DNA of 64,000 nucleotides from Girardia tigrina. Taxonomy: Eukaryota. Location: contig MQRK01222169.1 in the NCBI GenBank assembly GCA_001938485.1, positions 7,982-71,981 of the forward strand, read 5' to 3'. Position numbers and translations under genes: made by a program. Under the pieces are notes generated by a model. It worked only from the letters and a program-made list of their open reading frames with translations, ran no database searches and was not told where the DNA came from. Positions 3,201 to 44,600 of the stretch are shown one piece after another; within the stretch, counting starts at the first letter, position 1, and each line of letters starts with the position of its first letter.

Positions 3201-6200
3201 ACCCACAAGAATTCTACCACAGCACTGTGAGGATCAAACTTGCAGGTCTCCTTTCAATTTATGCAAGAGTTGGCTGTCTCAGCTGAGGTGCTCGTGCAAT
3301 GGTCTGAAACGTTCAAGTTGTAAAAAGAATCAAGCCTCTAAGGAAGCATGTTGTGAGGAGTGAGTGTTACTGAAGACGATATTACTTTCAAAAGTACGCC
3401 GCTGTAACGCTGTAGAAAGTATTTCAATTTCAATTAGGGTAAATCATTTATTGGCCATTGCTCAGCACAGTCATCTACAAAGCGCTGGATTTCTTCTGAA
3501 AACAAATGTCATTTTATTTTGACTCCTGCATTAATAAATGTTTCGAGTTCTGCTGTTTGCAAAAGAGTTAATATGTTTTGGACTATTTCTTGTTCCACAT
3601 CAAACTGCTCTCCAAGATAATTCTGTACTGATTATACAATTTTGAGGCTCACTGCATCCTGATTTCTTGTAGTTTGTATATTCGTGTTAACAGGTCTTAA
3701 AATGAGTCTCTGTTTCCTGTGGCTGTAGTGCCGAATCTCTATTGTTTATTATCTCTGGTAGAATCAGGTTGTCACGCTGTAGCTGCCTTTGTAAATCACG
3801 AAATATTTTCAAAATAGCAATTATTAGACCGTTAAGCCAAACTTGATGCGACTCACATGTCCACGTCTTAAAATATCTCCGTACTGTTGCTCACTCTTTT
3901 TTCAATTCACCTTTCACTTCTAAAAACTTAAAAACGTCCTTACAGTAGTAATAAGTATGAAGAATGGCCGTTAAAATGTTGATTATATGTTCAGCAAATT
4001 GAACTTCTTAATGAGTAGCGAAATGATTCGCCGCTGCTTGAAATTGATGCAGGAGATCCGTTGCCTTCTTATACATCCTGAAGAAGGTAGTTAGAGGCTT
4101 GGCATTTTTAATCCAGATACGCAGCTCCGAAATTCCTTCTTCAATGCTTTTAAAAACTGTGTCAATTCTGTGAACAGCACACCAGAACGTCCATAGATCA
4201 GGGTACAATCAGTTCTTTATAAGCTTCCCAAACTCCCTTGCAGTGTCTGTATTAGTGTTTTCGTCATCTCTAGTAACACTAATCAGCTTGGAAGTTGGTG
4301 CAGTTTTGGTCTTAAGAGAATGCTGAGTGGCTTACTGCAGTTCAAGGGCTTCAATATGTTGAGATTCGTTGAAGGCTTTGAATACGTTCTTTACTTCATG
4401 CTCTTCTGTTACTATTCTCGTAGATTCTTACTTATAATCCACCATTTGCAGATTGACGCATCTATCAACTTGCGCTGCGTAAGCAACAATCTCCTGTAGC
4501 TCATGAAGGAGTTCCTTCGGAACTTCTCCAGCAACGATGAATAACATTTCTTGATAGCAGTTTGGATCTCTGTAATGAAATATTGATGAGCAAGATTGAA
4601 ATTCCTCCAATGGAGAATTTATTTCTGTTGTATACGCAAACTCCACAACATTAAAAAAAATATTTAAAATTCAAGAACTAAATTAACAAATTAATAAAAA
4701 TCCAAAACTACATTAACAATTAATAAAATAAAAATTCAAAATTAAATTAAAATTCATAAAATTCAAGATTCATAAAAAAACATAAAAATTCAAACAAAGA
4801 ATTTGTTTTACTATATAAAATAAAAAATTAACAAAACGCACAAATTCCAATTAAAAAACCAATCTGTTAAGTGTTGCAATATGGAGGATCAATTTGATAC
4901 TACATTGTCTATAAATAAACGTTTATCGAAAATTCTCGTTCTCATTAAATACCCCATACAAAAGACTGTCAAGAAGGAGCGATCGAATAAATCGACTGTT
5001 ACGTCGATTAAAATTACATCCGGGACGAATCAGGTTGAACATGAACTTTTATCGTGTAATTGGTTGTACGATTTAGGCGCCGGTCATCTGGTCGCTAACG
5101 AACGCGTCAAACTTGATCAAGTCAACAGTATTGCGGACATGGTTACACACAACAACCCGACCCGATATAACTTCATTTTCGAGAAGCCAGTAAATATTTT
5201 TGGAATTGTGTACTTGAGTTAAATACTTTGAGAGCAAGCTGTTGGCAGAAAGAGTACTTATCAGACTGTCAATATAAACGTTCACGGCGAGTGAGATAAG
5301 AAACTCCACAACTTCCGCACGGTACTTTTGCTAACATTTCAAAAATGGTGATGAGAGGAATGAATTTTCCATTGCAATTCTCAATCTACATGTCGCACTG
5401 CTGCCTTTTGGAAGATTAAGTCAGGGTGATCTGTGACAGCCTTCATTTTTATAGTTGCATCTGCACGGCAGCCATAAGCCAAGTAAACAGTTCAATTGTA
5501 AGTAAACTTGCAAATTACATTCACAAACTTTTCACACGCTCTACATTTCACATAATGTGTTTTACGCTTCCCTTCAGCAAGTGCAAACATAAATACATCC
5601 AAGCAGTCGCTATTATTTTCTACTTAGCATTTTACATTCACTTTTCTGTGCTTGTACCATCCTATAGTACTATGAGAAGTGCTGATAATGGATTCTTCTG
5701 TTGTGTATTTGTGGTTCAGTCTTCTGCTAGAACAGTGAAGTTTAAGTCTTCTGTTGTTACAAAAGCATCGTGTTATGTTCACCAAAAAATAGAAAGGTAG
5801 TTTTAAAAATTTATTTATAAAAAATTGCGCCCCCCAGTCTATCAATTTTGCCTTGAACTAGGGGGCATTTTTGGTTACTGGGATTATCAAGTGCCCCCCC
5901 AGTCAATATGTTAAAAAAGGTCCTGCTTGGATTTGAAATTTTCAATTAGTCAACTGACGATGCAAAAACTAGCGAAACATGTTTTGAAAAATAAATATTT
6001 AAAAATATGGCGGCTTTTTATTTTATTTAATCGAGTACCATTAGAATTGGTTAATATATAGATAAATATACACGACTCTAAATAAAAATCCAATCATCAC
6101 ATCAATTCACACTATGTAATTTTGGCATGTGCCATTTGAAAAAAACGGTATGTCTACTCTATCGTTCGTACTTTACCGGGTAACGGAGACAAATGATACA

Positions 6201-9200
6201 GTTAATAGTAACGATAACAACGAAAAGCTAATCTTTGAGATGAGACTTTTCACACTCAATACTTAATTTTAGTTTTCACATCAAATGCAAAACAACTTTT
6301 AAAATTTTTAAAATAATTTTTTACATGTGAGGAATGTTTTGAATTGTTTGTTGCTTTATTTTGTGCATGTTGTACGTTGATTCGGGTTGTGTCTCTCCTA
6401 CACGGATGGCTGATTGGTATTTTCTTGGATTCCTACTAATTAAAAATAATTAATTTAATTTAATTTTAAAATTAATTTAATTTTAAAGTAAAAAGATTTT
6501 ACATAATTTTCGAATGTAATATTTAATTTTTAATGTAATTTATAATTGAATATATTAATTTCATTGGCACTTTTTATAAAATGTTTAGATTTAATTATAA
6601 CCAATTAGAATCCTTAAAAATAATAATAAAGTTTTTTGATATTTTGTAAAATTAGTATGAATTCAGAAATATATTAATTAAGAAAAATGTCGAATAGCGA
6701 AAGCCTTTTGTATAATTGTTGTCATAACAATTCAGATTGTGATGATAATAAATGTTTAAAAAATAATATTGATGTTTTTAATAGTACAATAATAATAATA
6801 ATAGTCTGACACTATAAACAACTAATTAAAAGAATACTAAACATGTATTTAACGAAAGAAAAAACTAGCTTATTATTATTCAAAATATATATTGGAAAAA
6901 TGTATGAGATAGCTATGAACAAATTATTTGACCCCAGATAAGAGAATTTTAACTCAAAATCAAATGCCCAAGAAATAAGTAGTAAAGTAAAGAATAAACA
7001 TTGATTATATTAAAAAAAGACTTACAAAACTTTTGAACTTTTAAAAGAACTATTGGTTATTAATGATCCTCCATTGGTAACAAACTGAATAACATCGTGG
7101 TGAGACTTACCACGATATGGTAATGAAGCAAGAGTAGATATTTCCCAAAGAACAACACCATACGACCTAGAAATTAAAAACCAACCTATTTTAATGGATA
7201 GATAATTGAAATGCCATAAAAAGTATTTTTTAAAAGATAAATATAAAAAATACATTTCCAAATTGAAATATAATTTTAATCGTCGATTATGTTTGTTTGA
7301 TTGTGAGAATTTTATTGGTGTTTCTGTGCAGTGTTTTTTGTAGAAAAATTTCTTTACAATTAAGAAAACAATGTTTAAAAAATAAATCGATTCGGTTTGG
7401 AAATTTCGAATTAAAATTTGGAGTTTTAAATAAATGTCAATTAAAAAAAGAGCCTCTTGAATTTTTTTTGAATATATATTTCTTTGAAATTACATCTTGT
7501 GGTTGAAAACGATTTATTTGTTTCGATTTAAAAAACTTTACTCCGAGTTAAAAACGATTTCCGAGACAAATAAACTTATTTTTTCAAAAGACTTTATATT
7601 TTTGAATTTTGTTTGAATTATTCCATGAATAATTTTAAAAATAAGAATAGATATCACCGGTACAATTTTGAACTAATAAATAAAATGTTGTCGAAGTATC
7701 CTTCTAATCTAACTGGGCCTTTTAAATTGGTAATTTAAAAAGCGCTAGATTATCTAGAAAATCTGCGAATCATTTTCCCTTTAACGATATATTATTCTAC
7801 GATATATAAACCGAGTGGAGAGTTGGTGATGATCCACGAGCTGAATACGTATCCGCATATTTGGGGAAAGTTTAATGTGGAGAAACGGTTTCTGATCCAA
7901 TTACTATAAAATAAATTTAAAGTAATAATTTATTTTTACAGTTGTTAAATCTGTTAAACTAACAATAAAAATGTCAGTTAAGTGCTTTCGTATATTTTAC
8001 ATTTTAATGTACTAACTATTTGTTATTTACTTTTCAAAAGAATTATCCTTCAGAAATATTTTACTGAAAATAAACAATTTTTTGCGAGTTTATTCAAAGG
8101 AGATTTATACAATATAATTTTATAATTTGAATTGTCCGCTCACTATGTCCTAAGTTTATTTACATAGAATATGCCTTTGTCTCTTTCAAAAGATATAACC
8201 TATTTTCGGATTTATTACCATTTTAATATAATATTAAAATAGTGAAAATAATGAATTCCATCGAAGTTTGAATTTTCTGTTTTATTTCTTGTTCTTCTTC
8301 TGGATCTAGAGATGTACCTCTAAAAACAAGGTACTTTAAATATCAATATAGTTTTCAGAAAATCCAGAAAACGTTTTGAAAACAAATTTTTATACTTATT
8401 GTAAATCTATTTAACATTTCTGTATGTCTTATATTTTTATTAAATTATGAGAATTAAAATAAACACCAATATCTTTTACCAGACGTCCGAACTTGTAGTG
8501 AACAAAGCTGATTGTAAAGATTCTGGAGCCATCCATCTAACTGGTAACCTGACTTTGCCTTCCTTTCTGTAATAGCAGTCATAGTACACGTCTCGAGCCA
8601 TACCGAAATCGCCAATTTTAATAATCAACATACTATTTATCATACAATTTCTGGCAGCCAAATCCCTGTACAAAATCATTATATTATCATATTTCTAGTA
8701 TAAAAAATATTAATCTAGTTAATTCATGAAATATAAACTTTCATAGAATGGAATTAATAACTATCCCTCACGTTGAAAGAAATTGATCACATAATTTTAA
8801 ATACATATTTAAAATCTTTATAGCAGAATAAAAACATTGTTATAAGTAATAATGAATATAAAATCTAATTGACAGTATCTGATTAAAAAACCATCAATAA
8901 TTGTATTAAGGACATTGAGACAATTCTCATTTTAATTTTTATTACAATCACATTTAGAGTCATTACAACTCTCAGAAGATCTTCCACCGTTTGACATCCT
9001 TCTAATTGGTTTTCTTATTTTTATTTTCAATCATGATTATTCGAAAAATTTTTCTAAATATTTTAAAAATATTTAATTTCTAAAAATATTAATTAAAAAT
9101 AATAATTTTAACTATTTCTTTATAAAAACCCAAAAGAATAAAATGTTATCAAATTACACTACCCGACAAATTTGAACTTTTTTTAGAAAAAGAAGTCTTC

Positions 9201-12200
9201 ATCTCCATTATATGCAGAATATGATGCTGAACACGAATTTGATAATCGTTTTTCTCCTATACATCCAGATTTTTTGTTATCTTATATTTTTTATTTACTT
9301 TGAAAAAGTCAAAAACCAGTAAAACAGTACTTATGAAGGAGTAATTTATATTTTAAGGACTGCAAATCATCCAGCAATAGTCAACCGTCATTCTCGGATC
9401 TGCTCTTCCTTGATATCGCTGTTCCAGTGTTGAAAGGGTCTGGTGAAATCGTTCACCATGTTCATCTGTGACCTGTTCCATCTCGGATGGGAAAAAGTCA
9501 ATGTAACTTTTTAGAAAGTGAATTTTTGGAGACATATTCACTTTCATCAGTTCAAATGCATCCAGCATTTCTGAAATTATATCTCGGTAATCAGGAGATC
9601 GATGTTTGCCTGAGAAAAAAATAAAAATAAATAGCAAAAACCATTTAATGTTATCGTACGTATGTTGTTCAAGTGATTGAAGTATAAAAACATACCAAGA
9701 AAGTTTTCCACACACTTTTTATGGCATTCCAGGCACGCATTTAAACTGGGGATTATGCATCTTGAAACTGCTAACTTTTCATTAATTTCTTCGTATCCGG
9801 CCAAACAAAGACACCTTCTTTTATTTTGGCTGCTGACAGTCGAGAAAAAATATTCTTCAGTGTTGTCATTGGCTCGCCTTCCGAATCCAAAGCCTTGACG
9901 AAATTTTTGAAAATCCCAAGCTTGATATGTAGTACAAGAGCCTCGTGGAGGACATTTTGCACTCCTGCTGTTTATTTACACGTTCTGGCCAATGGTTTCT
10001 GCTGTAATGCTGCTGACGCGCTCTGCTATCCCATAGAAAAATAAAACAAATGTACTTGGTGTAGCCACCCTGCATCCCAGTGAGCATTCCGATGATTTTT
10101 AAATCAGAACAAACTCTCCGTTTGAAGTTGTCGTAATGAATTAACTCAAATATCAATTTCAATGAGGATTAGGATTCTTTCCCTTTCCTGGAATAGGCCA
10201 CTGGCAGTTCAGGAAACTTGTTGTCCTTATGGAGGAGCACAGCCTTCATACTATTGACACTACCGTCGACAAAGAGCCACCAGTCTTCTTTCACATTCGT
10301 ATGAATGCTCATTCTCGAAAGAAGACATTCAATGTCATCGCAGTAGACCATCTCATCGCCATTACTTGTTTTGAAAAATTCCACGAACATCTTATCCCTT
10401 GCCCTGTAAGCCGTCGTGTTCGTTCCTGCTGCTAAAACACCAAATGGTTTAAGCATGGTTGCAACAAGATAAGAACCATCTTTCGATAACCCAAATTTTC
10501 TGACAAAACTATCAAGTTGATCTTGGTTGATGGTTTTACATGTGCGTTCCACGTCATCCGATCTCCAGTTGGCTTCCATGTCATCAGGTGTTTCTGATAC
10601 TTCATCATCGCTGTCAGAAAGAATGTTTAAATTCTTTGGTGGAACAGGAATTTGGTGGAGGCTCCTCTCCTGGTTCATATGGCCTTGGCAGAACTGCTGA
10701 CGGTAAATCAGGATAATAAATAAGATGAGCTGTCTTTTTACTGTGACCACGAACATTTGACAAACAGAAGTAACAATCGCTAACATGATCCATCTGCTCA
10801 CGTCAAGCCATTGGAGTTTAAAATGGCATTTGTTTCAGTTTTCCAGATTACCATAGAGAGAGATCAGAAAAACATTACTGGCAGACGCAATGGGGCCAAA
10901 TGACTCGTTCTGGTCTCCTATTTTCATTTTAAAGTAGTGAAAAAAAGGCTTTGGATTCTGGGAGTAATGGATCTGGATGTACCTTTAAATATACATTTTC
11001 TACAAATATAGCAAAATTTATTGGGATTGTTGACACATTGACGTCTATTCGATATAACCTGAAAAAAATATAATTGTGTGTATTAATTAGGTAATAATAT
11101 TAAAAATAACTGACGCGAGAATTATAAAATAAATTGCAGTAATGACACAATTTGAAGCAACGCACAATGATTACTCGTTAAAACAATAGAACAAATTAAA
11201 TGTAAATATAGTTTACAATATTTGATTTTTACTAAAGTAATAACTAATTGTCCGTAAATTGTATTTTTAATATATATTTGATGCAATATTTAATATTTTC
11301 TATTATTTTACTATTTTAGAAATTATTTTAGAAATTCTTTTAAGTTATAATTTAAAATCTATAAAAATATTACATAAATAATAAGAATACAATTTAAGGG
11401 CAGTTAATTATTACTTTAATAATACTATACTATATTTACAATTAATTTATTCTATTGTTTTAACGTGTAAGCATCGAACGTTGCTTTAAAATATAAAATT
11501 TATATAATTATCAGTTTTTCTCAATTTACAAAAAATCTAGACCTATAGGAGGAAATTGATTATCATTTTCGTGTTCAGCATCAAATTCTGCATAAAGTAG
11601 GTAAAGACTTCTTTGTCTAAATTTGAGTGTCGGGTAGTGTTATTAAAAATGAATTTAATTTAAACTTTATTAATTTTATTTATATCTAATTAAATGCTTT
11701 TCTTTCTTAAAAAATATGAAACTTAATTTTAATTGTTAATTTAAAAAATATAAACTTATCAAATTATTATTTTAATGATGTTTGAATAGTCAATCACTTT
11801 AAATTTAAAAATACCAATTTCAATTTGGGTTGAAGAATCACCATTCTAATTTCAACATACTTAAATCAACATACATCATCAATACATTCACATATTCAAA
11901 CAATTTAAAGTATTCCTCACAAATTGAATTAAAATCAAATTATATTATTTACACAGAAACATAACATATACCTGTGCACAAATTTCATTTCGGATAAGTA
12001 TAACATTCCATCAGCTATTTGTAGAGCCCATAAATGACTTTGTTCTTCTGAAATGATACCTTCACCTTCTTCTCCTTGCGTACGTAAATAGTTCGCTAAA
12101 TCGCCATATTCCATAAGTTCCATAATTACTAGAGGCATTTTTTTAAAATGCTCTAGAAAAAATTAAATCAAATTTAATGAATTGTATGGATATGAAAAAA

Positions 12201-15200: not shown

Positions 15201-18200
15201 AAGAATAAATTAAAGTGTTTAAGTTTAATATGAGTTTAATTCTGAGCTCTGTTTATTGTTTTTAAAATATTTGTTTGTTCTGTCGAATTTGCTAGAATTT
15301 CTGTATTTGTAACAATTAATTCTGACTGAAATATTGAAGTAGGATGAGAATTGGGATTTGAAACAGCACTGCTATATATTTTAGTAGTGAGAGTTTAATA
15401 GTGGACCCTCTAAAGAGCCTTAGGCTCAATACCATTACAGAGATGGGAGGCCCACAATTCAATTTATTTTACTTCATTTTAAGATTAAAAAAATATCTAC
15501 AAAAACAAAATAACAAATAATATCAAATAAATAAATAACTAAATAGAAAAACATAACGAAACTATAAAATAATGTTGTCAATTAGCTGATAGTCATAATG
15601 AAGTGTGATTTCAAATTTTTCGATTGTGATTCAAGCATAGATTTTTTTAAAAGTGCAAAAAACTTTTTCAGAAAAACATAATTTCAAGACATTTTTTTGA
15701 TTTGCAAAACATTTTTTCAGAAAATAAAATTAAACAAATTTTTTCTAATATTTTCGGTTTTTAGCTATAGATCGACTGAAATTCGTGTGGCGATTGACTG
15801 GTAGATCGCGATCGCCTGTTTGGGCAGGCTTGTTTTAGTTGAATAAAACAAAAATTGAAAAAGATTAATTACATATATAATAAATATTTTTATAAAAGTC
15901 TAAATTATACAATTATTATATTACGAGATATTGCACTTTTGAAAGAATTCGAATTGGCAAATCTGTCATCTAATTGTTTATTTGTTATATTCGGGTCTTC
16001 CAAACTAGCATTTTTTAAAAAACTACAACTTTTTGAAAAGTTTTGATTCAATAAATGTCTTATTCTTTCAAGACTTGGAATTTTGAAATCTTAATAATAA
16101 CTGATAAATTAAACAAATTAAATAAATCTACGTACTGAAAAACTTTTTTCCATAACGATTATTTTTTTGAGAATGACTAACTTTACTGACAATACCAAAA
16201 AGCTTTACTAAATGATAACTCTGAAATTGTTTCATATAACAAGCTTCGTTAATAAACTCTCTTCTTTCAAGAATTGTCGAATTGGTATTTAAAGTCTTAA
16301 AAATAAATATAATCGGTAAAAATCAATTCAGAAAAGTTTCTTAAGAAAATTTTACAATTCCAAAAAGAAATAAATTTTTGGAAGATCATTTTTAAATGAT
16401 TAACGCAAAATTTATAAAATGATCAACAACAAAAAATTTTTCCTGTAGTTGATATAAAGTTTTATAAATTATCACTGTAAATAAAAAAAATGTTGTGTTT
16501 CCGAATCAATATATGTATATATATTATCTAGAATTGATAATGACATTTTTAATAATAATGCAAACAAAGCCCATTTTTATATATTAAATTTATTGACAAC
16601 GCATACGCGTTTCACCATTTCGGCATCTTCAGTGCAATGAAATAAAGTGATTAATTACTATTTATATAGTTGAAAAACTATTACATCATGCGTTTTAAAA
16701 ACATAATTTTTTCTTATTTAAAAAAAAGTCTTTTAATGATATTTAAAAAACTTTATTATGATTAGATGAATCACCTTGCACTTTTAAGAATGGTTTATGA
16801 TGAATGATTTTATTTATGAATGCTTTATTAACAATGCTTCGAAAATAATCCTTTCATAATTTGTGTCAAAAATTATTTAAAATCTTTATAGTAATCCATA
16901 AGATTACCTTTACATCTTTTAATATGGCTCAATATCGAACTATTTCTACTCGATTGAGTATGTTCAGCAATTCTAGTGTGGAGATGACGAATTGTCTCTC
17001 CAATGTACCAGGCTTCGCACTTGTGACATTTGAATTGATAAACTAAATTTGCCTTAATACACAAAGGAATTTTTGATTTGATGAAAAAATAGTTCCGGCA
17101 TTTATTAGTTACAAAGATTACTTTCAATTTTAAGCCAACAGGTGTTCGATGTTCTAAAAATCGTTTGAACTCTTGCTCTCTCTGAGTACGGTAATTTTAG
17201 ATATATAGTCATTTGATTACCAATGTCATTTCCCGAAATTATATTAGATTTTAAGTAAATGGATTCAACAGTATCTTTTATGATTTTATTTAAATACTAT
17301 TAAGAACATTAATTTGGTTTTCTTTACATATATTTATATCACAATTTGAATTGCCACTAGAACAATTCTCTATAAAACTTGCGTAGCTCGTCATCGTTCT
17401 TGATTGATAATCTTTAATAATATTCTTTAACGTCTTATTATTTAAACAAATTTAAATTACAATTTAATTATTACAAAAATAATTTATACTTTAAATTATA
17501 CTTTAATTATTACAAAAATAATTTATACTTTAAATTTTAAATAATTTTTATTTATTTTAAGAAAATATTATTTATGAAATAGTAGTTTAATTTTAAAGTG
17601 ATTAATTAAATTTTAATACTTGATTAAACAACCCGATGTTTTAAAATATTTAAAATATCAATCTTCCATCTGGGTGGGAGAAACACAATCCTAAAACAAT
17701 ATACCAAACAACACACAATAAACACCATTCAAAAATATTCCTCACAAATACTTTTTATTAAATCCATTTTTAGAAAGCTTATTATGAAGTTCATCAACTT
17801 CATTATCAAATATCTCAAAGGTTGATGTTAAACCCCAGACTCTATGTACCAAACCTTTAATCATGTTCCTATTGTATTTTGGGTCAGCAAAACTGATTGG
17901 ATAACTGTACAAGTCGGTATCATTTGGTTTTCGATATATTCGAGTCTGATATTTATTTTTAATTCTTTCAATTAATACGTCTAAAAATGATAGTTTAATA
18001 GTATTTTCTATTTCAAAGGTAAACTTTATATTAGGGTGAAGACCATTTACAAACTCTGAAAAGTTTGAGACATTATCTTCACCTTTAAATATAAGAAAAG
18101 TGTCATCAACATATCTCGTATAAAATAAAGGTAATTCACCCTTAAAATTAATGAACTTTTGTTCTAAATTATGCAAAAAGATAGAGGCCAAAGATGTAAA

Positions 18201-26566: not shown

Positions 26567-26601
<35 letters not shown>

Positions 26602-29600: not shown

Positions 29601-32600
29601 TCACTGGGCCTTAAATTTCTGAGAATAAAACTTCCGAATTGTCGTTGATTCGATAAATGTTTATTAATAGAAGACAGGTTTGAATATACTGAATCCGTAC
29701 CATTAAACACATTTTTATCATTCAACCATTCCAATCTTGTAATGCATTCAGTTTCATATGGATTCTACGCAAAGTTAATTTTAATATCATATTAATTTTA
29801 AACTAACGTCAGATTTATTATTTGTCAAATCTTTATACTTCAACAAATATTTCAGAATTAATCCATTTGGTGCACTCGGTTCACTCCAATATATTATAAC
29901 AGAAGTTCCGTTGACAAACGTACTGATAGAATCTTCATCGATATCGTCCATACTATCTGATATAAAAACGGATACATAAATAAAACTTAAAATAAATCTT
30001 ATTTTTGAACCAGAAATATTAATCTAATGGTTTTCGAAGTATTTTTTAATGTACTTTGTCGATTTATTTGTTGGCAAAATTCTCTATTTTTCTTTATTTT
30101 AAAACAAATTAATTTCAGGAATAAATAAAATAATTCATTAAAATGTAGTTAAAAAAATAGAAATAAGATAAATTTTTTAATACTTCACATTTTTATAAAT
30201 AAAATCACTACGTTAGATAATTAATATAATCAATAAAAAGATTATATTTGTTCTTGATCATTGGTTATGTTGTAAGGATAGACCTCATCCATTTCAAAAG
30301 ATGAGTTTTCTGTTCTACAAAAGGGTTTTGATTCACATTACGAACGACAGTTTTGTGAATCTCTACTANNNNNNNNNNNNNNNNNNNNNNNNNNNNNNNN
30401 NNNNNNNNNNNNNNNNNNNNNNNNNNNNNNNNNNNNNNNNNNNNNNNNNNNNNNNNNNNNNNNNNNNNNNNNNNNNNNNNNNNNNNNNNNNNNNNNNNNN
30501 NNNNNNNNNNNNNNNNNNNNNNNNNNNNNNNNNNNNNNNNNNNNNNNNNNNNNNNNNNNNNNNNNNNNNNNNNNNNNNNNNNNNNNNNNNNNNNNNNNNN
30601 NNNNNNNNNNNNNNNNNNNNNNNNNNNNNNNNNNNNNNNNNNNNNNNNNNNNNNNNNNNNNNNNNNNNNNNNNNNNNNNNNNNNNNNNNNNNNNNNNNNN
30701 NNNNNNNNNNNNNNNNNNNNNNNNNNNNNNNNNNNNNNNNNNNNNNNNNNNNNNNNNNNNNNNNNNNNNNNNNNNNNNNNNNNNNNNNNNNNNNNNNNNN
30801 NNNNNNNNNNNNNNNNNNNNNNNNNNNNNNNNNNNNNNNNNNNNNNNNNNNNNNNNNNNNTATATATATATATATAATATTTTTATATAATATTTGTATA
30901 TATATATATATATATATAATATTTTTATTGATCTTATTTATTGATTACAATTACAAATTCAATAAGAACATTTAAATGGCAATGTTCGGGATTCAAATTT
31001 TTGTTACTATTATCATTATTTATAATAATCGGAATTCTCTATCTTCTTTTTCTCTCATATCTTGCAAACATTTTTGGTTCAAATAAAAAATTGAATTAAA
31101 AATCCTGATGGTGATTTTTATAAATGAATGTTTACGACTTCGAATTTTATTTTGATTGCAATCTTTATTAAACGGACGATTTGTGATTAAATTTATCGAT
31201 TTTCAAATATTTTTTTCTTTCTTTTCTCGAGCAATTTTATCAATGACATTTTTTTGAAAAATCTTTCGATTATTAGAAAATGATTTATAACCCAAATTTT
31301 GATGAATTTTCACTGCTTTATGATTGATGTATTTTGACACGAAATAAATTCTATAATTTAAATTGCGATTCATTGTCGAGTTATTTTCTCATGACAATTT
31401 TTTTTGATTTGATAATTTTGATGAATATGAAATGTAAAATAAGATGATTTTTTGTTATTCAAACTATGTTATTCAAACAAATTAGAATTAATCCAATTAA
31501 TTACACTCCCCATGATCTCGAGATAAAATCACACAATCGTCCAGATACTGAGGGGGCTTCCATACCCGCACCGGTCGTTCAGCGGAATCTGTAGCTACCT
31601 CTTGCGCTGTCGATCCACTCATTTCGTCTTCACTGTCTAAAATGCATTCATCGGAATGCACTAACATCAGTTGTCGATTGTCCACTTCTCTCCTGATGTG
31701 GGATATATGTCTCGTGATTCCATCGTCGTCCAGCTCCACTCCAACTGCAGACTTCAATTATATAAGTACATGCGGCCTCGTCCATGGTTCATCGCATTTC
31801 CCACCGACTCTCAAATAAACATTCTCACCAATGCTGAACGGGTTTTTCTCCGTATCGTCATACTCATCATTCGAGATACACTCCGAGATGAATTTGCATT
31901 CAACCTGACGCTCATCTCGAATCATTGGCAGACGAGACTTGGCATGGAACATCAATTCATAGGGCCCCGCATCCCGGTGACCCGTCGTACTGTTGTACCA
32001 AAACACACATTCGCTGATCGACTTTGCAGATCTCGCCGCAATTTTTTTAACGGTGTGGGGATTTCTCTCGTACATCCCATTCCCTTGATGCCGATAGGTT
32101 GCGGTGAACCCTTGCTCGATTTTCTAATTATCTAGCAACCGTCTCACAGGGGCACTTCGGTAGACAGCCGCATTGTCGGAAAAGAAACGTTCAAGCGGTT
32201 CAAATTCAGAGCATACGCTATCTATATGCTAACCTATTTCCTCGGCGGATTCACTACGTAAATTACTCCAAATACAAAATCTTGTTGCTGAATCCTCTAT
32301 GGTCAGATACGCGACACCGTTGAAATAAGTCACATCGCTATAAAGTTGGTACCATACCTTGTCAGTTGATAATTGCCCATGTCGATACTTAATTTGTGGG
32401 GCTGAACAGATCTTTAAACCCTCAATACACTGCTTGATAACTTCCTTAACTTGATACGACTTTATTGCATTAGTCCCATATTTTTCCCTCAACAGTTCAC
32501 TCGTCCTGTCGACTCCAAAGTGACAGATATCATGAATTTTCTTGATCTCATCAACACTTGCATACTGATTTGCTTAAATGACGTTTACTTCCACTTTCCT

Positions 32601-35600
32601 GTTTAGCCATTGTTTTGGAACCCTGGTCAAACAATCTGCCATATTCAATTGAGATTTCACCAATTCCAGTTCCACTTCCAGTTTTTTTTGATCTTTCTAC
32701 TCTCTCATGATATCGAGTCTTCGACATACCAAATGTTCAGATAATGTGCGGGTTCTTGGGTCGTGTGTATCCTTAAATACTTCCAAGAGCCATCCATACA
32801 CTGTTGCTGAGTCCGTCATCAGCTTGAACTTATGAAAGCCCCAGGTTATTTCCAAGTTTATTCCCATTATGGCCGCATCCAGTTCACTGATATTAATATG
32901 GCTTGTATTGTCTTCTTTCCTTAACCAAACAGTGTCCATTACTACCTAATTTTATACAAACATGATCACCGTCTACCCGTTTTGTCAGTTCACGTTTGAG
33001 AATAACATCGTTTACCACTAATATGCCGACACCTGCAGGCAGCCTTTCAACCGGCGCAGCTCACTTTTGATTTTCTTGGCATTTCTCAGTTGACCGGAAT
33101 CGACGACAAAACTGAATGATGGACGTTGTTCAATCCGCCAAGTTTTATCTATTTAAGCACTTTATGGTAACAAAAGAGGAAGTGTAAAGATGGGGTCAGA
33201 GCTGTGTGACGTCATATTCCAGCGGGGTCAGGCCTTTTGTGACAAACTGTGACAAGGGAGAGGGGGGTTGGAAAGTTGCTAAAATCGCGTGACGTCATTT
33301 ATGGACAGCCCCTCATACATCAATCTTCATAAATGATTTATGAATTAAGACTGAACAATGGAATGGAATAGACCTTTTTTTATCCTTATTACTAAACAGG
33401 GTATGCATTTTCCTGGTTCTTGGAGTTCCATAGCCAATTATCGTAGAATGGTAAACACATAAAAATGTTCGATTGTCGGTTTATTCTACCAATTTCAACT
33501 TTTAAAAAATATCACACAAAATTTTATTAGCACAAACGAATTAAAAAGTTTTATGAATTCAGACACCTTTTCACCAAATCAAACTCACGAATAATTAATC
33601 TTAATTTTCTCCGATTATACTTGAAGGCATTGCCAAATTATTTTTATTGATGGATTAGACTTCAAAATTTCTATCTTCGAGCCAAAATGATTTACATTTG
33701 GCTGGAAAAATTAAAACATTTAAAACGTTTGTATTACGCATTAAAATTATTGGATCTTTTAAAATTACAACTTATAAAATGTCTTTCTCAAAACATTTGA
33801 TTTTTTCTTGGAAAACTTCATTTAAAATGACAAATATATTATTATTTTAATTTATAATTTTATATTTTTTTTTATTTTAAGAATTGTCGTACAAAAATCA
33901 ATAAGAAATTTAACACAAAAAAACGAAAATCTATAACAATAATTATAAATAAAAATCATACCGTTATAAAATGTGTAAGCCCCAACAGATGAGATTGTAC
34001 TACACAAGGTCCTCATAAAGTATGTAGAATTTTCATTACTATAATTGCTTTCGTATGTTTGTACAATTTCATCAAACGGATCCTATATGAATTTAAAAGA
34101 TAATAATATATTTAGTTTGGTACTTACTTGACATGCTTGAATTTCAAAAAGGTATTCTGTGTAATGATGTAAATTTGTGAATGTGAAAAAATTCACATCA
34201 GCAGGAAGTTGAACCATTTGCCATGACTGATTCAGGAGGCTACTAAGAATATATCTTTCTGAATATAGGAAAATATAATTAATTTGAGTACAACTATGTA
34301 TAATATTAGCAAATAAAATAGAATTTCATTAATAAAAACAAAAATACGCCATTTGTTAAATATACATTTATTTTTCATGACAATTAATTTCGACGGTATA
34401 ACCGTCATCGTCAGGTCTCAAGAAAAAAATGAATTTTAAATCTGCTTATATAGNNNNNNNGTGATTATGTCATCAATGGATTATTATGTCATCTAAACAC
34501 GCTCAATAGGGTTTTCGAGAGACCCGTTTGCACATTAATCTTAGGATCTAAAGATCTGATATAAAGTGCTTCACAGGTCATCCTCTCCCAATAGTTTAAT
34601 GATGACGGTTATACCATCGGAATTAATTGTCATGAAAAATAAATGTATATTTAACAAATGGCGTATTTTTGTTTTTAAAAATAAGTTGCCATCATTTTTT
34701 AATGTTTCATTAATAAAATTTTATTTTCTGTTCAAAACAAATTCCAATTCGCTATTTGCAGGTAAAGTTAAACCCCGATATAACGAACTTCAATGGACTT
34801 AATAAAATGTTCTTTATATAGTTTGTTATATCAGCGTTTAACTGTATTACAGTGAATCGCGACTTACGAAATTGTTTGTTATTAAGGAATGTTTGTTATT
34901 GTGAGGGAAAATTCTGAATTTTGTAAGTTTGTTGTTTGTATGCTGCTTAGATTGGTGGCTCTCCTACTTAAACGGCATTGATATGTTATTAATTAAATAT
35001 TTAAATCTAATGAGATTAATGTTTGAATACTAATTAATTAAAAGTTTTGTAAATATAAATTTTAATAATATTTTTAGTAAACGATTTAACTTACTAAATT
35101 TAATATATTTTAAAAACTAATGTTTATTTTAAAATTTACTTATTGCATTTTATCCTATTAAATTTAGACAAATTAAAAGTTAATAATTATAAAATCTTAT
35201 TCTTTAATGAAAGGTTTGAATATAGATACAAAAACATATTAATCAAGAACGATGCTTCCCGCAGAAAGTGCTGCTGAAAATAATTCTGTTTGTTTTGTAA
35301 ATAAATGTATTCTCGTAAATTATGATGTTGCTAATAGTTATAAATGGGTTCGTTCTATCGGGGTTTAACTGTATTTATAAATATAAATAATGAACTTAAT
35401 AGATTTGCAAATATATTTGTTTTAATGTAAAAAAGTTTGGTTGAATTTTTTACTACAAATGGTATTTTACAAAATATTAAAATTTTAAAATAAGAACGTA
35501 ATCAATGTAGATTATAAATTTACCAGCTATATATAGAAAACTGACCACCTTTTGCAAACTTTTTACATGTTTTAAAGAGTTACGTGCAAATTTTATTCAT

Positions 35601-38600
35601 TTTTTATCTACAAAAAATTAAATTTAATTGAAAATAATGTACAAATAACACAATGCTAATAAAAATTTAGAAACAAAAAGAAACACTTGACAATTTCTAG
35701 TCATAAAAAACTCACAAATTTATTAAAATTTTCTAAGGAAATTTAAAAATAAAAATATTCAAAAATATTATTATTAATGAATATTTGTTTGAATATTTGT
35801 TTCATATTAAAATATTTTAATTTACAAATATTTGTTTAATTATTAGTTAATATGGATTTATTATTTTATGTATTTGAATTAAAATTTAATTATCTAATTT
35901 ATTCTGAGATTTTAATTGTCTTAGTTAGAAACTTTAGAGCCTATAAGTGTGCCATTCTCGATATCCCATACAAAAAGAACACACACATAAAAATCGACGA
36001 TGCAGACATACCACATCTTGAAGTTGACGAGGTATACATGTACTTAGGATCATTTATAGATCGCATTGTCACATACACACCTGAGAAACTATTCTCTGAC
36101 ATCCTCGCAGACTTAAACTATATTAACATGTCACTCCTCCTTCCTTGGCAAAAACTGCATGAATACATGTTATTTGAACACTAAATTTATCTTTAACGTT
36201 AGAAGCTCATTCATTCTACTTGGCAAGTTAACAGAGTCTGTTACAGGATGGGATATCAACATTAGGAGATTTTTCAAGGATGTACTAGGAGTACCCGACA
36301 ACACATCAACACCCTACATCTATGTGTCTCGTTCCAATGGAGGAGCTGGAATAACTTCGCCATAGATGAATATATAATCCAATCCATCAGTCACTCCTTT
36401 TACATGTTAAACTCCACTGACCCCAATATTTCAGAAACTGCCAATTTCACACTTAGACGCTCTTTACCAGACAGATCTATTGGTTTTGATGATGCACTAA
36501 GCTGGCTAAACACTTACAATAAAGAACGTAACTCATGGTGAAATAAAATACAACAGGCCATCCATGTATTCAAAGACACTCATGGAGTTTTAATTCGATT
36601 TCTTTATAGTTACCCTAGAGTAGTGATATCAATCTCACAGAATGTTGGTGGCAAAGTGACTCTTGAGATTATTAATTGGAACAATAAAGATAAATTAACT
36701 AAAATCTTAAGGAATTGTGTGTCGAGCACCTATTTGGATCAGTGAAATAAGCAGAATAGTGCTGGTAGATATTCAGTGGCTCTATCACAATCTGCCTATT
36801 CTACCTCACCAATATATAACGGTCGACTCACAATTGCTGAATGTCAATTTATTCATCAAGCACGCTCATAAACTATTCCTGTTAAGTGCAGACCGGGTGT
36901 AATCATTCGCATTCCCTGTCGACGAGGTTGCTCTAAAGATGAGACTCTTACTCATGTGTTGGTAGGCTGTAATTCCTTTAGTAACTTCTGGAATGCACGA
37001 CACAACGCTGTGCTTGATATCTTCGCTACTGAGATTAAAGCACACTCGGGTGGCGTAGTATATGTGAATGAAACCTGTCGGCATGTTCCTTCCACGAAGC
37101 GTGTTGATTTGCAAATCTTCTTTGAATCAATAAATATTTTGTTCCTTCTTGATGTAAAATGTCCCTATGATCCCATGCACAATCTTGAGAAGGTTGACCG
37201 AAAGAATGTGAACAAATATTTCCCCTTAATGTTGCAAATCAAAGAGGTATGTGGTTACAAAGTCGTCCTTGACACAATCATTGTTGGTGCTCTTGGTGCA
37301 TGGTGGACCCACAATGAGGACATCCTGGATGACCTTAATTTATCATTTAGAAAAAAAGCCATAGCCAACGTCTGTGTTGAGTCCAACATTCGTTGGTCCT
37401 GTGGGAAGCCTTTCAAGACCCTCGAGAACAGAACACACACAGACATGAAGATGTGATGAACGATCCAAATGCCGGCTTCGAAGCCCTTCAAGAAGGGCCC
37501 ATTTTTGATGAGTGTGACTCTGACTCTGTGTTTGGAGAGGATCACGGGTTATGGTAGTTGTATGTTTAACATTCTGAGGATTCATATTAGTATTGGGATC
37601 AAGATTTTGAATGTTTGTGTTAGATACAATGACCCAACTTAAGTGTGTTCACTATGGCAGAGGTGAGAGTTTTTTATGTATGTTGGATCCCAAGTTCTAT
37701 AACTCAGTTTGTTTGGCATCCCGATTGCTGTCTTATGTGTTTCTGCTTTGAACATAGAAGAAGATGAACGCTTGCAATTGTGGGCCCACAGGTGCTGGTC
37801 TGCTCTCCTGCTCCGCAAAGTTCCAGTGCTGATAATTAGGAGCCATTCTCTCTTTTTCTTCTTTGCCCCACTTCACCTTCCACTCAGAAAATGTGCCGTA
37901 AAGCACTAAAACTAAATTGTAACAAATCACTGTGTTTACAATAAACATTTTGCAAAAAAAATTGATATTTTACTTCGCATTTATCTAAATTATGAATAAA
38001 AGTAAATCTCATATTAAAAACCAATACTTACTTTCACTTCGATTTTCACTGGCAATATTAAACGCTTTTTGTTCGTCATTTGAATATGACTCATTTGTAA
38101 TACCATGTTTTAGATCGACGTAAGGGGATTTTGGAATCCAATTAGACTCCGGAATTTGCCTTCTGAAGTAATTTTATGAAAATAGTTAATATATAATATT
38201 GTTATGTAGTACGCAAAACTTCTGTAATCAATTTAATTAATGAATGATGTACTTTATTTTGATTTTGGAATATAAATAAACGCTAGATTACATTTGTTTC
38301 TTACGATACAATCAAGTTTTTAGGCAACAATTTTAACTGGTATGAGTTTTTTTTATCAATGAAAATTATATCATATTTCATTATTTATCGAGTTTTTTCA
38401 CGATGACTATTGTGATTGAATGGCCGGTTTGAATAAACCAAATCACATCTCTATGGACATTTAGCAAAGACACAGACATATACAGAATTATTATATGCTT
38501 TACACACAGACCACAACGGACTGTTATATAATAGATGAACGACTAAACCATGCATTATTGGAATTTTGACACCTAAAAATCTTTTAGTCATGGTGATTTT

Positions 38601-41600
38601 ACAGATTCTTTCATGTCTCTGAAAGCCTTGTGAAAGCCTTTATAAATAAGTTTTTATTGTGTATTTATGAAGCAGTCTAAAAAGCAGTCTTAAAAGCGAC
38701 TGACATAATTAATTAAGGACCTAAATGAGTAAATTAAATACAGAAAATCATCTAAATCACAGATTTCCTACAGTAATTAAATTAAAAAAAGTATAGTCAT
38801 CTTTAGTTTGAATTAAATTCATAAATCAGCTTCCCACAACCGCACGAATAAAAGTACATACTGCATTGGAACATATTGTATTGAATGGGGTAGAAACCAA
38901 ACATGTACAAGAGAATTCCGATCCTCTTCCATGGGCTTACAAGCTTTCACTACATGGGCACACTTTGGCTTACCTCTTGAAAATGATCAATCACAATCCA
39001 TATTTCCGTGATTTTGTAAAGTCTTAGCTGTTGAATCAACAGTGTTGAAGTTCCATTGATGTTAAAGATTGTCAATAGCACATCATATACGAGTGAATTC
39101 AAAACATCTGTGACTTTTTTTCAAGTTCTTATGTTTAATGTTCCTATTCGATAATCAACCAGTATCTGCAGCTGTAACCGGGTACAGGACATCTCGATCC
39201 TAAATATGTAGACGATGAAACATTTCAACGCCAGTATTTTTAATATATACATATGACGAACTTGTCAAAACATTTTTAAAATTCTCAATTTATTATTTAA
39301 AAGTTTCAATTTATGTTTATGCCTTACCTATTTTATACACTCTTCTACTGAATAAACAGGGTCAAATGTTAATAATGATTCGAATGATTCAAATGCTAAT
39401 CGATTTTTGGCCTAAATTTGATTCTAAAGAGATATCATTAGACTTTAAAGTAGTATTGATAAATGCTTTCTCTTGTGTTTTTCTGAATACAAGCATACAA
39501 GGATATTTATTCCATTTAGTTCAGTAACATCAGAAGAAATAATCATCAAAAAATATATTTAAAAATACCACAATAACTAATGATTATTTAAACAACCATT
39601 CATTTTCTAACTAGTTCAAAACCAGTTACGACGTATAAAAAACTTAATATTACTAAGTTAACATCTTAAGTATCAGATAAAACTTTGGTAGTTTAAACTT
39701 TTAAATGAAATACTGTCAGAAAATCTAATGAATCTCTCCGACAACATTCATTTAATTTGTTATTATATCTTTGAGTTCCATCTTTATAGTTTCATGGATA
39801 TTAGTTTTTAGTGGGAATCCTATAATATATTATTAATTTTAAATTAATTTAAGCTATCACTTTCTTCTCCAAAGCATCAATAAACCTCCGTAATATTATA
39901 TGGTATGCACTTATTAAAGATGAGAATGATTAGTACCTATTTTACAACATTATTTGAACAAAATAAAAAAAAGGCACCGATCCCTTTCTTCCCTGTAATT
40001 TGGTCATACTATTTAAAAACTATAAATAATAAGTCTATGACTAATTATTTTGTGAAAGCCGTTCATAGAAAATTGAGTAGAGAAATTATAGATTCATTGC
40101 ATATGAGTCAAAAACCAACTGATTAATTATATGATAAGCTTATACAGGGAGATAAGAATACTAAAAAACGGAAGATGAATCGTTTAGCTGACGAAAGAAT
40201 TTCAGAAGTCGTTAATCGTTAAAAATAGAGAAATATTAGAATATTTACAATGATTTGCTTAAAACTATCGTATGGATTAAATAAAAATAAAACATTTTTA
40301 TGAATATAAATGAATTGTTTGGAATTTATTTTTTGCAATTAATATTGTACTACATAAGTAATAATATATGCAAATACTAGACTTTTTGAATTTCCCGCTT
40401 TGTAAATAGAACGGTAAAATGTTATTTATTTTTGATTATATTTATTAATTTTAAATTTTGTTTAATAGTTTAGTAGAAGTTAAATTTTGGTATTAAAAAC
40501 ATTTTAATAAAAAATAATTGTTAAAGACTAAATTTATGTTGTGAGGAATATTTTAAATTGTTTGAATGTGTAAATGTATGGATGCTGTATGTTGATTTAA
40601 GTATGTTGAATATAGAATGGTGATTCTCCCACCCAGATGGAAATTGGCATTTTTTTATTAAATTTAAAGTGATTGACTTTTCGAACATAATTAAAATAAT
40701 CATTTTATAAGTTTTCTCATATCTTTAATTTCAGAATTAAAATTAAGTTTAGTAATTTTTAGTAAAATTTAAATTAAATGTATTTTTAATCATTTGATGT
40801 CATTTTTATTATTTTGGGATTTATTGAAAAATGGTAAAAATTAATATTTTTAATTAATATTTTTTAGAGGTTAAATATTTTAAAAAAATAACTTAGAAAA
40901 ATTGTTCGAATAATCATGATTAAAAACAGAAATAAGAAAACCAATTAGAACGATGGCAAACGATGAAAGACCTCTGAGAGTTGTAATGATTCTTAATGTA
41001 ATTGCAATAAAGATTCAAACGAGACTTGTTTAAATGTTCTTAATATATGTTATTAAAATATTAAAAGTTTTTCTTAATATTTAAATATAATTACAAAAAA
41101 TAAATTAAAATATTAGTATTTTATAAACAAATCTTTGTAGTTTTTTAAGTTATGTATATCCTATTGGAATTCTAACATATTTTGTGTGTTTGATACAAAT
41201 TTTTTTGGTTTTGTTTTTCAATTTTTAAAAATAAATCAGATGATGTTCTGAATTGTGGAATAATAAGTGGTTACTCAAAAGAAGTTATATATATATATAT
41301 ATATAAGAAATTTAAAAAATAATGGCAATTTTTTATTAAAATCAAGAACGCCATTAAGATCGAACTTTATTGTCGCAATATATTTTGGTGGATTTTCCAC
41401 CATCTTCAGGCTGAATTGACAACAGTTTCACAAGTAACTCTTTCCCAATAATTTTTAAAATTACTGCACAATATTTTAAAATTAGTTGTTTTCACCTCTG
41501 ATTTACAGAAGGTTACAAAAAATTTAAATTGTCTATTTAAAAATCAATTGATAGTACAAATTTGAATTTAATAATCATTTCTAAATTTTACAAAATTCAA

Positions 41601-44600
41601 AGTATGTTCAGCAATAAATCTCATACTCCTTTGAGTTTATGTTCCAATCTGGTTTATCAATTTTCGTGTAATGGGTGCAACGCTACATACATTGGAGAGA
41701 CGTCTCATCATCTCTGTAAACGGATTCAGGAGCATGGACGATTGNNNNNTGGGAGTAATATTGCTGGACATATGAAGGGTTGTAAATCGGAGGTGAAAAC
41801 AACTAATTTTAAAATATTGTGCAGTAATTTTAAAAATTATTGGGAAAGAGTTACTTGTGAAGCATTATTGATTAAATCACTTAATCCGTCCATTATTTTC
41901 CAAACAAGTCTCTCTTCCAATTTGTTGAAAATATTTAATTAGTTATTAAGCAAGATGTTTGTATAATCATCAATTTTCTATATATATATATAAGACAGCG
42001 AAATTGTTGTTAATTCAGCCTGAAGATTGTGGAAAATCCACCGAAATATATTGCGACAATAAAACTTGATTTTAATGGCGTTCTTGTTATATATATATAT
42101 ATAATAATACTCACTGTTTTTTGAAAAACTCGGAAAGATAAACATCGATAATATACACATAATCCACTGCAATGTGTTTTTTATCATTATTTTGTTTACA
42201 AGTCATCATATAGTTACTACAGTCACAACCATGAGCTGAATTCATTTCATTATTATTTACAAGATTTGGTTTTATTTCGGATCGAGTACGATGCTTTTGA
42301 GAATATCGCTCTAGAAAAATAACTTAATTTACTTTGGTATTAAAGATTCAAAGCTAATTTATATAAATTACATTATATATATTGATCACTAGACACTTAA
42401 TCGCTAAGACTCTTAATCACAAGATACTCACTAGACACTTAACTAATAAGACACTTTATCCCTCGACACTTATTCACGTAATCCATCAATTAATATTCAA
42501 ACAAGCCTCTGTTCCACTTTGTTAAAAATATTTTATTAGGTATTACATAACTTAATTAAATAATAAGAATTCATATACATATGGAAGTACAATTATTGAT
42601 TAAATAAATTACTTATTTTACAAAAATGTTATGTTTCTATTTATTTTTTAATTTAATATTTTTCAGAAAACGTTCTCTTTAATATGACTCAGAAAAAAGT
42701 GGAATTCGGCCAAACTTCAAAAAACAACCTTTGCTTATTACATAAACACGTCAAACAAACGTCTAACACCGGAGTTATATTAATGGAAATGTGCAATGGA
42801 GATGCGCAAACCATCGAAACAACTACTCTGGTAAAAAATGCCATCGTTGGCACTTATGATCTGGAACACAACCATATAAGTAATAAGGAGACATTACAGT
42901 CTAAACAAGCTGTAGATACAATGAAAACAAAAAATAATGTAATTTCTGAGACTTCGACTGCAGTAATAGGGACTATTTCTGAAAATTTGCCAGATTCTAT
43001 CATTTTAGGTTTGCGATTAAAAATAATTTAAAGAAAACATTAATTAGAGGAAGAAAAAAGACTATTTTATCTAATTTAGGAATAAATTCATCCACATTTG
43101 ATTTAAATTTCGGTATACCGAATGATTTCAATAATATGATTTTATACGATTCTGGTCCAGGTAGTGACCGTTTTCTTTTATTTGGAGTAAGAGATTTATT
43201 GAGTGGACTGTCTCGTGCTAAATTATGGATTTCCGACGGAACCTTTAATTAAATTCCATCGCTGTATTTCCAGCTATATACTATTCACTTCGAAATTCCT
43301 CCTGGTATAAATCCTGTTGGAATTTATTTTTTATTTGCCCAATAAAACCCGGGTAATGTATGAAACAATTTTGCGTGAAATTAAAAATATGATTCCGAAC
43401 GCTGAGCCAGAACGTATTTTGATTAATTTTGAGAGGGCGGAAATTGATGCACTCCAAAATGCTTTTCCAGGAATAATTGTAAGGTGTTATTTTCCATTTA
43501 ACACAAAGTGTTTACCGAAAAGTGGAAGAAATTGATATGAAAAACTTTATGATGAGAGAGATGATATTAGATGTGCTATACGATATTTGCCTGCTTTAGC
43601 TTTGGTCGTAATTAATGAAATGGAGAATTCTTTTTTCGAACTTGCTGATGTAATGCCTCAACACGAAAAATGGGAGAATTACTATTGTATTTCAAGCATA
43701 CATATATCAGAGGTAGGAGGCATGTTGGCATAATTAAAGTTTATAATCCAACCTTATTCCCCATCGAAACATGGAATCATTTTGAATCTGCCTTCGAGGG
43801 AATTGCAAGAACTATAAATAGTATTGAGGGATGGAGTTATGGTTTTCAATCTCTCTTTCAGTGCCATCATCCGTCATTTTGGAACTTTTTAATAGGATTA
43901 TGGAATGATTTACAAATGCAGAAAACAAGTTACCTACACAGAATTTCTGAAAATTTACCCTATTTACCAAAAAAAATATTTAGTTACGTAAATGTATTCA
44001 TACTTTTTTTTCCAAGAGGTCTTATATGGGACGGCGAACCGCTAGTTGACAAACCGAAGCACGACTTTGGGTTGATATGGGTGATTCATATCAATTTCCT
44101 TTGGCTTGGAGGAACGCAAACGCGGTCACATTTTTCAATTAAAATGATGCTAGATTTTACCAGAATAACTTTATTTATTTCAGAAATTACATGAAATATT
44201 TTTGCATAAATAATCGTCAATAGAATCTTACCTAAGACGGAAAAAAGGCTAGATAATTGAGATCCCTCCATTCGAGCAAGGTGCCTTCCCATTAGTCAGT
44301 TGAGATATGGTAAGCCTTATCTCATTCTCGTTTCGTGATTCTCCATGTTATGAGAATTTAGGTTTCTCATAATGTGATCATAAAGCTTATGTGACATTTT
44401 TTTTCTTTTAATGAGCATTTGACGATCATTTTTCTTATTATACGAGTTTACTTACTATATATGTATACTTTAAGGTGAAACCCACATGAAATATAATATT
44501 TTTTATTGTATACAAAATTTGGATCGTCCTGTCGGCAATCAATAGTAGAGCTTTCAGTCTTCGATATCGAAAAGAAGAGATTATTAATTTTATTAAAATA

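Follow-up and report, generated by a model that had tools for sequence, protein, structure and literature searches.

We analysed a 64,000-nucleotide stretch of the Girardia tigrina genome (GenBank assembly GCA_001938485.1, contig MQRK01222169.1, positions 7,982 to 71,981 of the forward strand; the whole stretch is called the window below). It carries four hammerhead ribozyme (HHR) motifs of Penelope-like elements (PLEs), each with a palindromic hexamer in stem III. A sequence-only reading of the window had proposed that this palindrome is a pairing code by which each family recognises its own kind. Our main finding is that a family-specific code is not supported, because many families share only a few palindromes. 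The palindrome is probably the self-complementarity needed for a double hammerhead formed in cis between two identical copies of the pseudo-long terminal repeat (pLTR); it is shared among families and likely drifts, and would not be a code. The finding itself is ordinary, as this class of motif and the part its palindrome plays in dimers have already been published (Cervera and de la Pena 2014, PMC4209133).

The four motifs lie at the places reported by the sequence-only reading, with cores starting at 5954 (+), 16632 (-), 34414 (-) and 42020 (+). All have the layout stem I-CUGANGA-U-stem II-GAA-hexamer-H-stem I, and the minimal core CUGANGA...GAAA...UH, with an unpaired nucleotide before stem II, is present in each. 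As had been noted, the four hexamers differ and every one is a palindrome. Judged by their sequence, the motifs are minimal hammerheads of the dimer type known from PLEs, and all four form the 3' pLTR end of a truncated PLE fragment that encodes a GIY-YIG endonuclease (EN).

5950-5987, + strand: HHR1, hexamer ACATGT at 5977-5982, predicted cut after 5983 (GUU)
16639-16597, - strand: HHR2, intact, hexamer ACGCGT at 16610-16605, predicted cut after 16604 (GUA)
34417-34379, - strand: HHR3, intact, hexamer ATTAAT at 34388-34383, predicted cut after 34382 (AUU)
42018-42054, + strand: HHR4, hexamer ATATAT at 42046-42051, predicted cut after 42052 (AUU)
60100-60140, + strand: fifth hammerhead, decayed (core at 60104), hexamer ACATAT, G12 changed

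Stems I and II are short and show paired changes across families; G10.1-C11.1 is the usual pair, and family 2 has G10.1-U11.1. Stem II is damaged in HHR1, with two changes relative to its relatives, and in HHR4, where G10.1 has become U, and this damage is private to the window copies. A search with Rfam covariance models gave no match at E<=1 for the window motifs, and folding of monomers did not produce the hammerhead fold, which is weak evidence. When one core mismatch was allowed, a search of the window returned nine rows: HHR1 to HHR4, damaged inverted copies at 2434 and 41409, the motif at 60104 (+) and two chance rows. The motif at 60104 had been overlooked in the earlier reading. Its stem II type occurs elsewhere in the genome with ACATGT, so that two families in the window probably share a palindrome; from its sequence, ACATAT probably derives from ACATGT, the palindrome of HHR1. 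The window copies are lone and 5'-truncated, have no partner of the same family nearby, and are probably inert.

The whole genome (1.43 Gb) was searched, with the reversed pattern as control. A loose hammerhead pattern gave 83,038 matches against 13,031 in the control, and the class is therefore well above chance. Searches with exact hexamers gave 12,204 matches for ACATGT (control 16), 4,430 for ACGCGT (2), 12,349 for ATTAAT (29) and 12,452 for ATATAT (15). Further, ACYRGT gave 1,489 (63), with ACTAGT in about 83 of 100 among the matches listed (counted by hand), and ATSSAT gave 201 (14), including a small ATCGAT subfamily. All eight palindromes with a purine at 15.2, and their variants, were searched with a slightly tighter pattern; the result was 330 matches against 58, and no hammerhead family was seen among the 100 matches listed. 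Five palindromes dominate genome-wide, and their effective number is about 4. With these genome frequencies four random copies are all different with P ~0.095; four different hexamers in four copies is unremarkable.

Stem I, stem II and the flanking sequence served to define 20 families by hand, some on the basis of one to three copies; most loci came from the hexamer searches, and family representatives were picked among palindromic copies. The palindrome is perfect in 20/20 representatives, while stem I varies with paired changes. Within a family the hexamer is constant, as the sequence-only reading would have it: ACGCGT is found in 19 of the 20 family-2 rows, at loci chosen by the reverse transcriptase (RT) protein. 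Between families it is not distinctive. The 20 families use 6 hexamers (ACATGT in 7 families, ATTAAT in 4, ATATAT in 4, ACGCGT in 2, ACTAGT in 2 and ATCGAT in 1), and 35 of the 190 family pairs share one; the HHR1 family and the GCCGTAATGGC family, for example, have the same palindrome. Thus the earlier interpretation holds for distinct families, dimer-type hammerheads and constancy within families, and fails for the code.

One of the ACGCGT families, GGGAT (L090-L117, L344-L385), makes up about 60% of the listed ACGCGT matches and shares its hexamer with family 2. It is an abundant, apparently non-autonomous PLE derivative whose tail enters a frameshifted GIY-YIG remnant. At L344:458-520(+) a chimeric hammerhead joins a family-2 core and hexamer, inside stem I, to a GGGAT tail; this is a single case, both parent families carry ACGCGT, and it may reflect a template switch or a nested insertion.

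The mapping of hexamers from the genome-wide search onto GIY-YIG EN trees, which had been proposed as a check, also went against the code: the outer variable pair follows two deep clades. The trees have 37 and 33 rows and include no reference PLEs. The larger one was obtained from 80 EN rows after 5 mis-parsed or wrongly linked rows were dropped, 28 rows under 75 aa were removed and family 2 was thinned. The HHR3, GTGAC, TAGT and GGGAT families are absent from the trees, and a few rows are artefacts or of low quality: L120_p1269 (37-row tree) and L293p5990 (33-row tree) took the EN of a neighbouring element, and L073 is gappy and long. Both trees split with 100/100 support into an AT..AT clade and an AC..GT clade, which makes the 15.2-16.2 pair ancestral. 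Differences among families are confined to the two central bases and have arisen repeatedly, with 8 changes against a minimum of 5 (one of them from an artefact row). The ATTAAT and ATCGAT families are sisters at 100/99 in the EN tree, and by DNA the ATTAAT and ATATAT families group together. Whenever the hexamer changes between families, the outcome is again a palindrome; this agrees with selection for self-pairing and is silent on discrimination. Hammerheads have triplet preferences at the cut site. The 15.2-16.2 pair is always pyrimidine-purine and therefore gives GUH or AUH cut sites. With A15.1-U16.1 fixed by the core and 15.2 remaining a pyrimidine, 8 usable palindromes would be left, and it is likely that the palindrome drifts among equivalent solutions. 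In the AC..GT clade the families have, for the most part, (TA)n microsatellites at their ends, and at many loci one sits within the tail of another; most tails have an ATG, a putative start codon, 18-30 nt past the predicted cut.

The palindrome would not act by itself. In the dimer model (PMC4209133) each core takes the cut strand from its partner, so stem I should be exchanged between the copies as well. Stem I separates most of the families that have the same palindrome: both stems are compatible in 3 of 190 family pairs under a 3-bp rule, or 6 under a 2-bp rule. For the window's four the predicted helices favour self over cross pairing, as the earlier reading had expected, and the four are predicted to be orthogonal (-11.7 to -23.6 for self pairing, at best -4.3 for cross pairing). 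These energies are sums of helix stacks without initiation or junction terms, and the two-stem table caps a mismatched stem III at 0. However, when hexamers were shuffled within clades the number of compatible pairs was hardly changed, 3 observed against 3.6 expected (P 0.55) and 6 against 7.4 (P 0.40). Some cross pairings are predicted to be about as good as self, namely HHR4 with CGC (-17.6 vs -11.7), HHR1 with ACAA (-15.6 vs -17.5) and TAGT with CAGT. Further, families with compatible stems I share a palindrome as often as random ones, in a test of low power. As the shuffling shows no deficit of shared addresses, the orthogonality looks like a by-product of divergence.

Family-2 5'-end loci were chosen by the DNA of the N-terminus of the open reading frame (ORF), 30 for a survey of partners and 40 for junctions. 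A hammerhead pLTR lies on the same strand about 70 nt before the ORF-start query in 7 of the 30 loci, and L305 and L314 have a hammerhead pLTR at both ends; identical partners therefore occur on one transcript. L305, L314, L318 and L320 are short family-2 copies (about 1 kb) that have lost internal sequence and carry pLTR sequence on either side, resembling retrozyme-like non-autonomous units.

Contig ends or gaps limited 5 of the 40 junction loci, and 28 independent events remained once duplicates had been merged by hand. Relative to the predicted cut, their 5' junctions range from about -220 to +114. The exact cut fits 5 of the 28 (L306/307, L308, L311, L315 and L320, with 0-3 nt of microhomology), and a sixth, in a TA repeat, is ambiguous. 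The binomial P for 5/28 is 2.6e-4, under a uniform null and with the range of positions chosen after seeing the data. At the 3' side, 255 of 272 ends extend at least 15 nt past the cut and 3 end at it. The RNA data consist of assembled contigs only, of presumed RNA and without ends, and were not used as evidence. The family-2 junctions, a lead from one family's genomic sequence, hint at cleavage in vivo.

These observations can be joined in the following mechanism. A tandem PLE transcript would carry two identical hammerheads that pair as a double hammerhead. A palindromic hexamer would be the only way for identical copies to form a shared stem III; any palindrome compatible with the core would then serve, and families would drift among a handful of them. 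Preference for self would come from proximity in cis together with stems I and III. At least on occasion the upstream hammerhead would cut and so fix where the RNA template begins at its 5' side. The downstream one would stay uncut, so that the template keeps its tail, where reverse transcription would start; internal initiation of reverse transcription has been demonstrated for the anole element (PMC11167929). The fuller version, with a cis double hammerhead addressed by stems I and III and asymmetric cutting in the germline, the upstream cut being fossilised as 5' and inversion junctions and the downstream site left intact, is a tentative proposal and less likely than the self-complementarity on which it builds.

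Several observations weigh against this mechanism. A complete pLTR-ORF-pLTR unit was not seen in 20 loci chosen by RT, in a gappy assembly. In the GGGAT family 43 junctions within a 10-nt interval from -3 to +6, to which the search was confined, show no sharp peak; with duplicates included, 9 of the 43 lie at -3..0, 7 at +1 and 11 at +3, and 16 fall within -3..+1. In a third family (GATG) 6 of 28 boundaries lie at -4..+4, some of them probably artefacts, and 40 further loci yielded no new 5' ends. Neutrality would rest on a null test of low power with 20 hand-defined families. Eleven of the 20 families have U17, and triplets with U17 are the weakest. The hammerhead of the anole element required protein for cleavage, insertion in vitro did not depend on that cleavage, and RNA-seq reads neither began nor ended at the cut (PMC11167929).

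How do other explanations fare? That the palindrome alone is a code, shaped by selection to restrict cleavage to partners of one family, is very unlikely. It would agree with the constant hexamer within families and with the different central pairs of certain close relatives, and stacking of stem III alone gives -4.3 to -11.6 kcal/mol for self against -4.3 at best for cross pairs (the family-1 row being the mutant copy ACATCT). However, the sharing of six hexamers by 20 families, the effective number of about 4, the two ACATGT families probably present in the window, and a hexamer of which half is dictated by the core or goes back to deep ancestors all argue against it. A combinatorial address of stems I and III, selected against trans cross-cleavage among co-resident PLE families, is less improbable but still unlikely. 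Both stems are rarely compatible and the window's four favour self; further, a GAC/GTC stem I is common to three families with three different palindromes. Selection for such an address is, however, not seen in the within-clade permutations, and the strong cross pairings listed above oppose it. Stems of 2-6 bp would also be too short for trans pairing at cellular concentrations, and cis partners exist at family-2 5'-end loci.

It is about equally doubtful that an element protein chaperones cleavage of single motifs, or that the motif is mainly a signal for protein binding or RNA dimerisation, with the palindrome as an RNA-RNA contact and no double-hammerhead cut. The protein requirement of the anole PLE hammerhead (PMC11167929), the weak cleavage of minimal HHR dimers in vitro (PMC4209133) and the rarity of cut 3' copies point that way. 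However, the core, the paired changes in stem I and the UH are kept in 20/20 families, a monomer whose stem III has a single pair does not explain why the inner pairs remain palindromic, and for the minimal HHR of S. mansoni dimers were cleaved and monomers were not (PMC4209133). Finally, the hammerheads could be passengers that have lost their cleavage in vivo, and the cluster of 5' junctions could mark a transcription start or an RT stall. The PLEs Naiad and Chlamys, which lack hammerheads, proliferate well (PMC8557442), and GGGAT has no sharp peak; this explanation is nevertheless scarcely credible, as palindromes and cores are perfect across 20 diverged families and five junctions fit the exact scissile bond, while stalling of the RT at stem I should give junctions at about +5 to +7.

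The assignment of the four motifs to PLEs comes from their surroundings. Each lies about 75-250 nt 3' of a GIY-YIG C-terminus, in element 1 after discounting a 3-kb insertion, and each adjoins an inverted copy of the 3' part of its own element. The features are:

2370-2462, - strand: element 1 pLTR and hammerhead in inverted copy, core damaged
2474-2757, + strand: element 1 GIY-YIG C-terminal fragment, 64-66% aa identity to a family-2 EN
2866-5925, no strand assigned: insertion with terminal inverted repeats, read from the sequence, parting the EN of element 1 from HHR1
16746-17232, - strand: element 2 GIY-YIG region, broken; a family copy matches PF01541
17745-18191, - strand: element 2 C-terminal part of the RT, 87% to one copy of the family, which matches RVT_1
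18189-18450, + strand: inverted copy of the element-2 EN end and 3' untranslated region (UTR), ending before it reaches the hammerhead
34492-34596, - strand: element 3 GIY-YIG, last 35 aa
34601-34699, + strand: inverted, truncated, core-damaged HHR3 copy and tail
41334-41429, - strand: inverted HHR4 copy, G12 changed to A
41502-41939, + strand: element 4 GIY-YIG domain (PF01541, E 2.7e-5)
59721-59962, + strand: decayed GIY-YIG fragments of a fifth PLE family, beside the fifth hammerhead

That the four belong to distinct PLE families is borne out by EN identities to a family-2 EN of 64-66% for element 1 and 45% for element 4; the EN of element 3 has 68% identity to a family-4 copy over 34 aa. 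Elements 1, 3 and 4 are known from EN fragments only. Family 2 has a single ORF with RT followed by a C-terminal GIY-YIG (RVT_1 and PF01541), and a DKG motif and C-terminal EN are observed in PLE copies. The hallmarks of EN+ PLEs, that is pLTRs, an inverted 5'-truncated copy and a tail, are all present; truncation, inversion and tails are standard PLE traits (PMC8557442). The insertion at 2866-5925, within the 3' UTR of element 1, is about 3 kb long with terminal inverted repeats of about 36 bp and an 8-bp duplication (7/8 bases match). It may be hAT-like; no transposase ORF was identified in it.

The window contains other mobile-element remains. Small PLE EN fragments without a recognisable hammerhead are found at 24306-24449(-), 30261-30343(+), 42474-42545(+) and 49815-50092(+). 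Two mariner-type transposase copies (PF01359, PF17906), at 20242-21365(+) and 46617-47722(-), are 95% identical. At 35840-37456(+) ORF pieces end in a CCHC and a restriction-like endonuclease-type motif; they have no Pfam match and look by eye like a non-LTR (R2/NeSL-like) remnant. Positions 31665-32573(-), 55399-56202(-) and 9353-10834(-) hold an integrase zinc-binding remnant (PF17921) as well as what look by eye like remnants of transposases, hAT/SPIN-like and others.

The closest known systems are the minimal HHRs of PMC4209133, which reports dimer cleavage of PLE hammerheads and palindromy at 15.2-16.2 and loop 3. Shared with them are the Type I form, the short stem I, the extra nucleotide between 9 and 10.1, G10.1-C11.1, the palindromic 15.2-16.2 with loop 3, many consensus families per genome, the dimer model, and singles and opposite-strand pairs 100-700 bp apart. 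All families here have a 4-nt palindromic insert, the type described there for D. virilis, rotifer and shrimp. The copy number is very high here, about 70,000 matches above control against 2,000-9,000 there, and neither palindrome sharing among families nor 5' junctions at the cut are described in the accessible part of that paper. Dimer cleavage of small PLE hammerheads is also credited to Lunse, Weinberg and Breaker 2017 (RNA Biol) by PMC6765202 and PMC6466107; those ribozymes have a similar palindromic short stem III and tandem arrangement, and they cleave as dimers. The anole Poseidon PAc element (Frangieh et al. 2024, PMC11167929) is similar in its pLTR hammerhead, a tail running into the ORF start, AT-rich targets and the use of uncut RNA for insertion. 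No RNA-seq reads at the cut are reported there, whereas here 5/28 genomic 5' junctions fit, in one family. In the R2 element an HDV-like ribozyme (PMC3774820) defines the 5' end of the retrotransposon RNA by self-cleavage, as may be the case here; however, it is a different ribozyme, acts as a monomer and belongs to a site-specific non-LTR element. For PLE hammerheads the accessible texts describe no in vivo evidence of a role (PMC4209133) and an unclear function (PMC8557442), and palindromes go unmentioned in the part of a 2026 retrozyme preprint that was available. The literature covered, which is incomplete and whose supplements may list palindromes by family, mentioned neither a palindrome code specific to families nor 5' junctions of PLEs at the cut.

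If the proposed mechanism is true, genomic junctions would be an in vivo read-out of PLE hammerhead activity. Should 5' junctions at the scissile bond prove general to the families, the genome sequence alone would show that cutting takes place in the germline and which copy cuts. The roughly 20 families would then be a natural set of mostly orthogonal dimer ribozymes, offering ready natural pairs for heterodimer tests.

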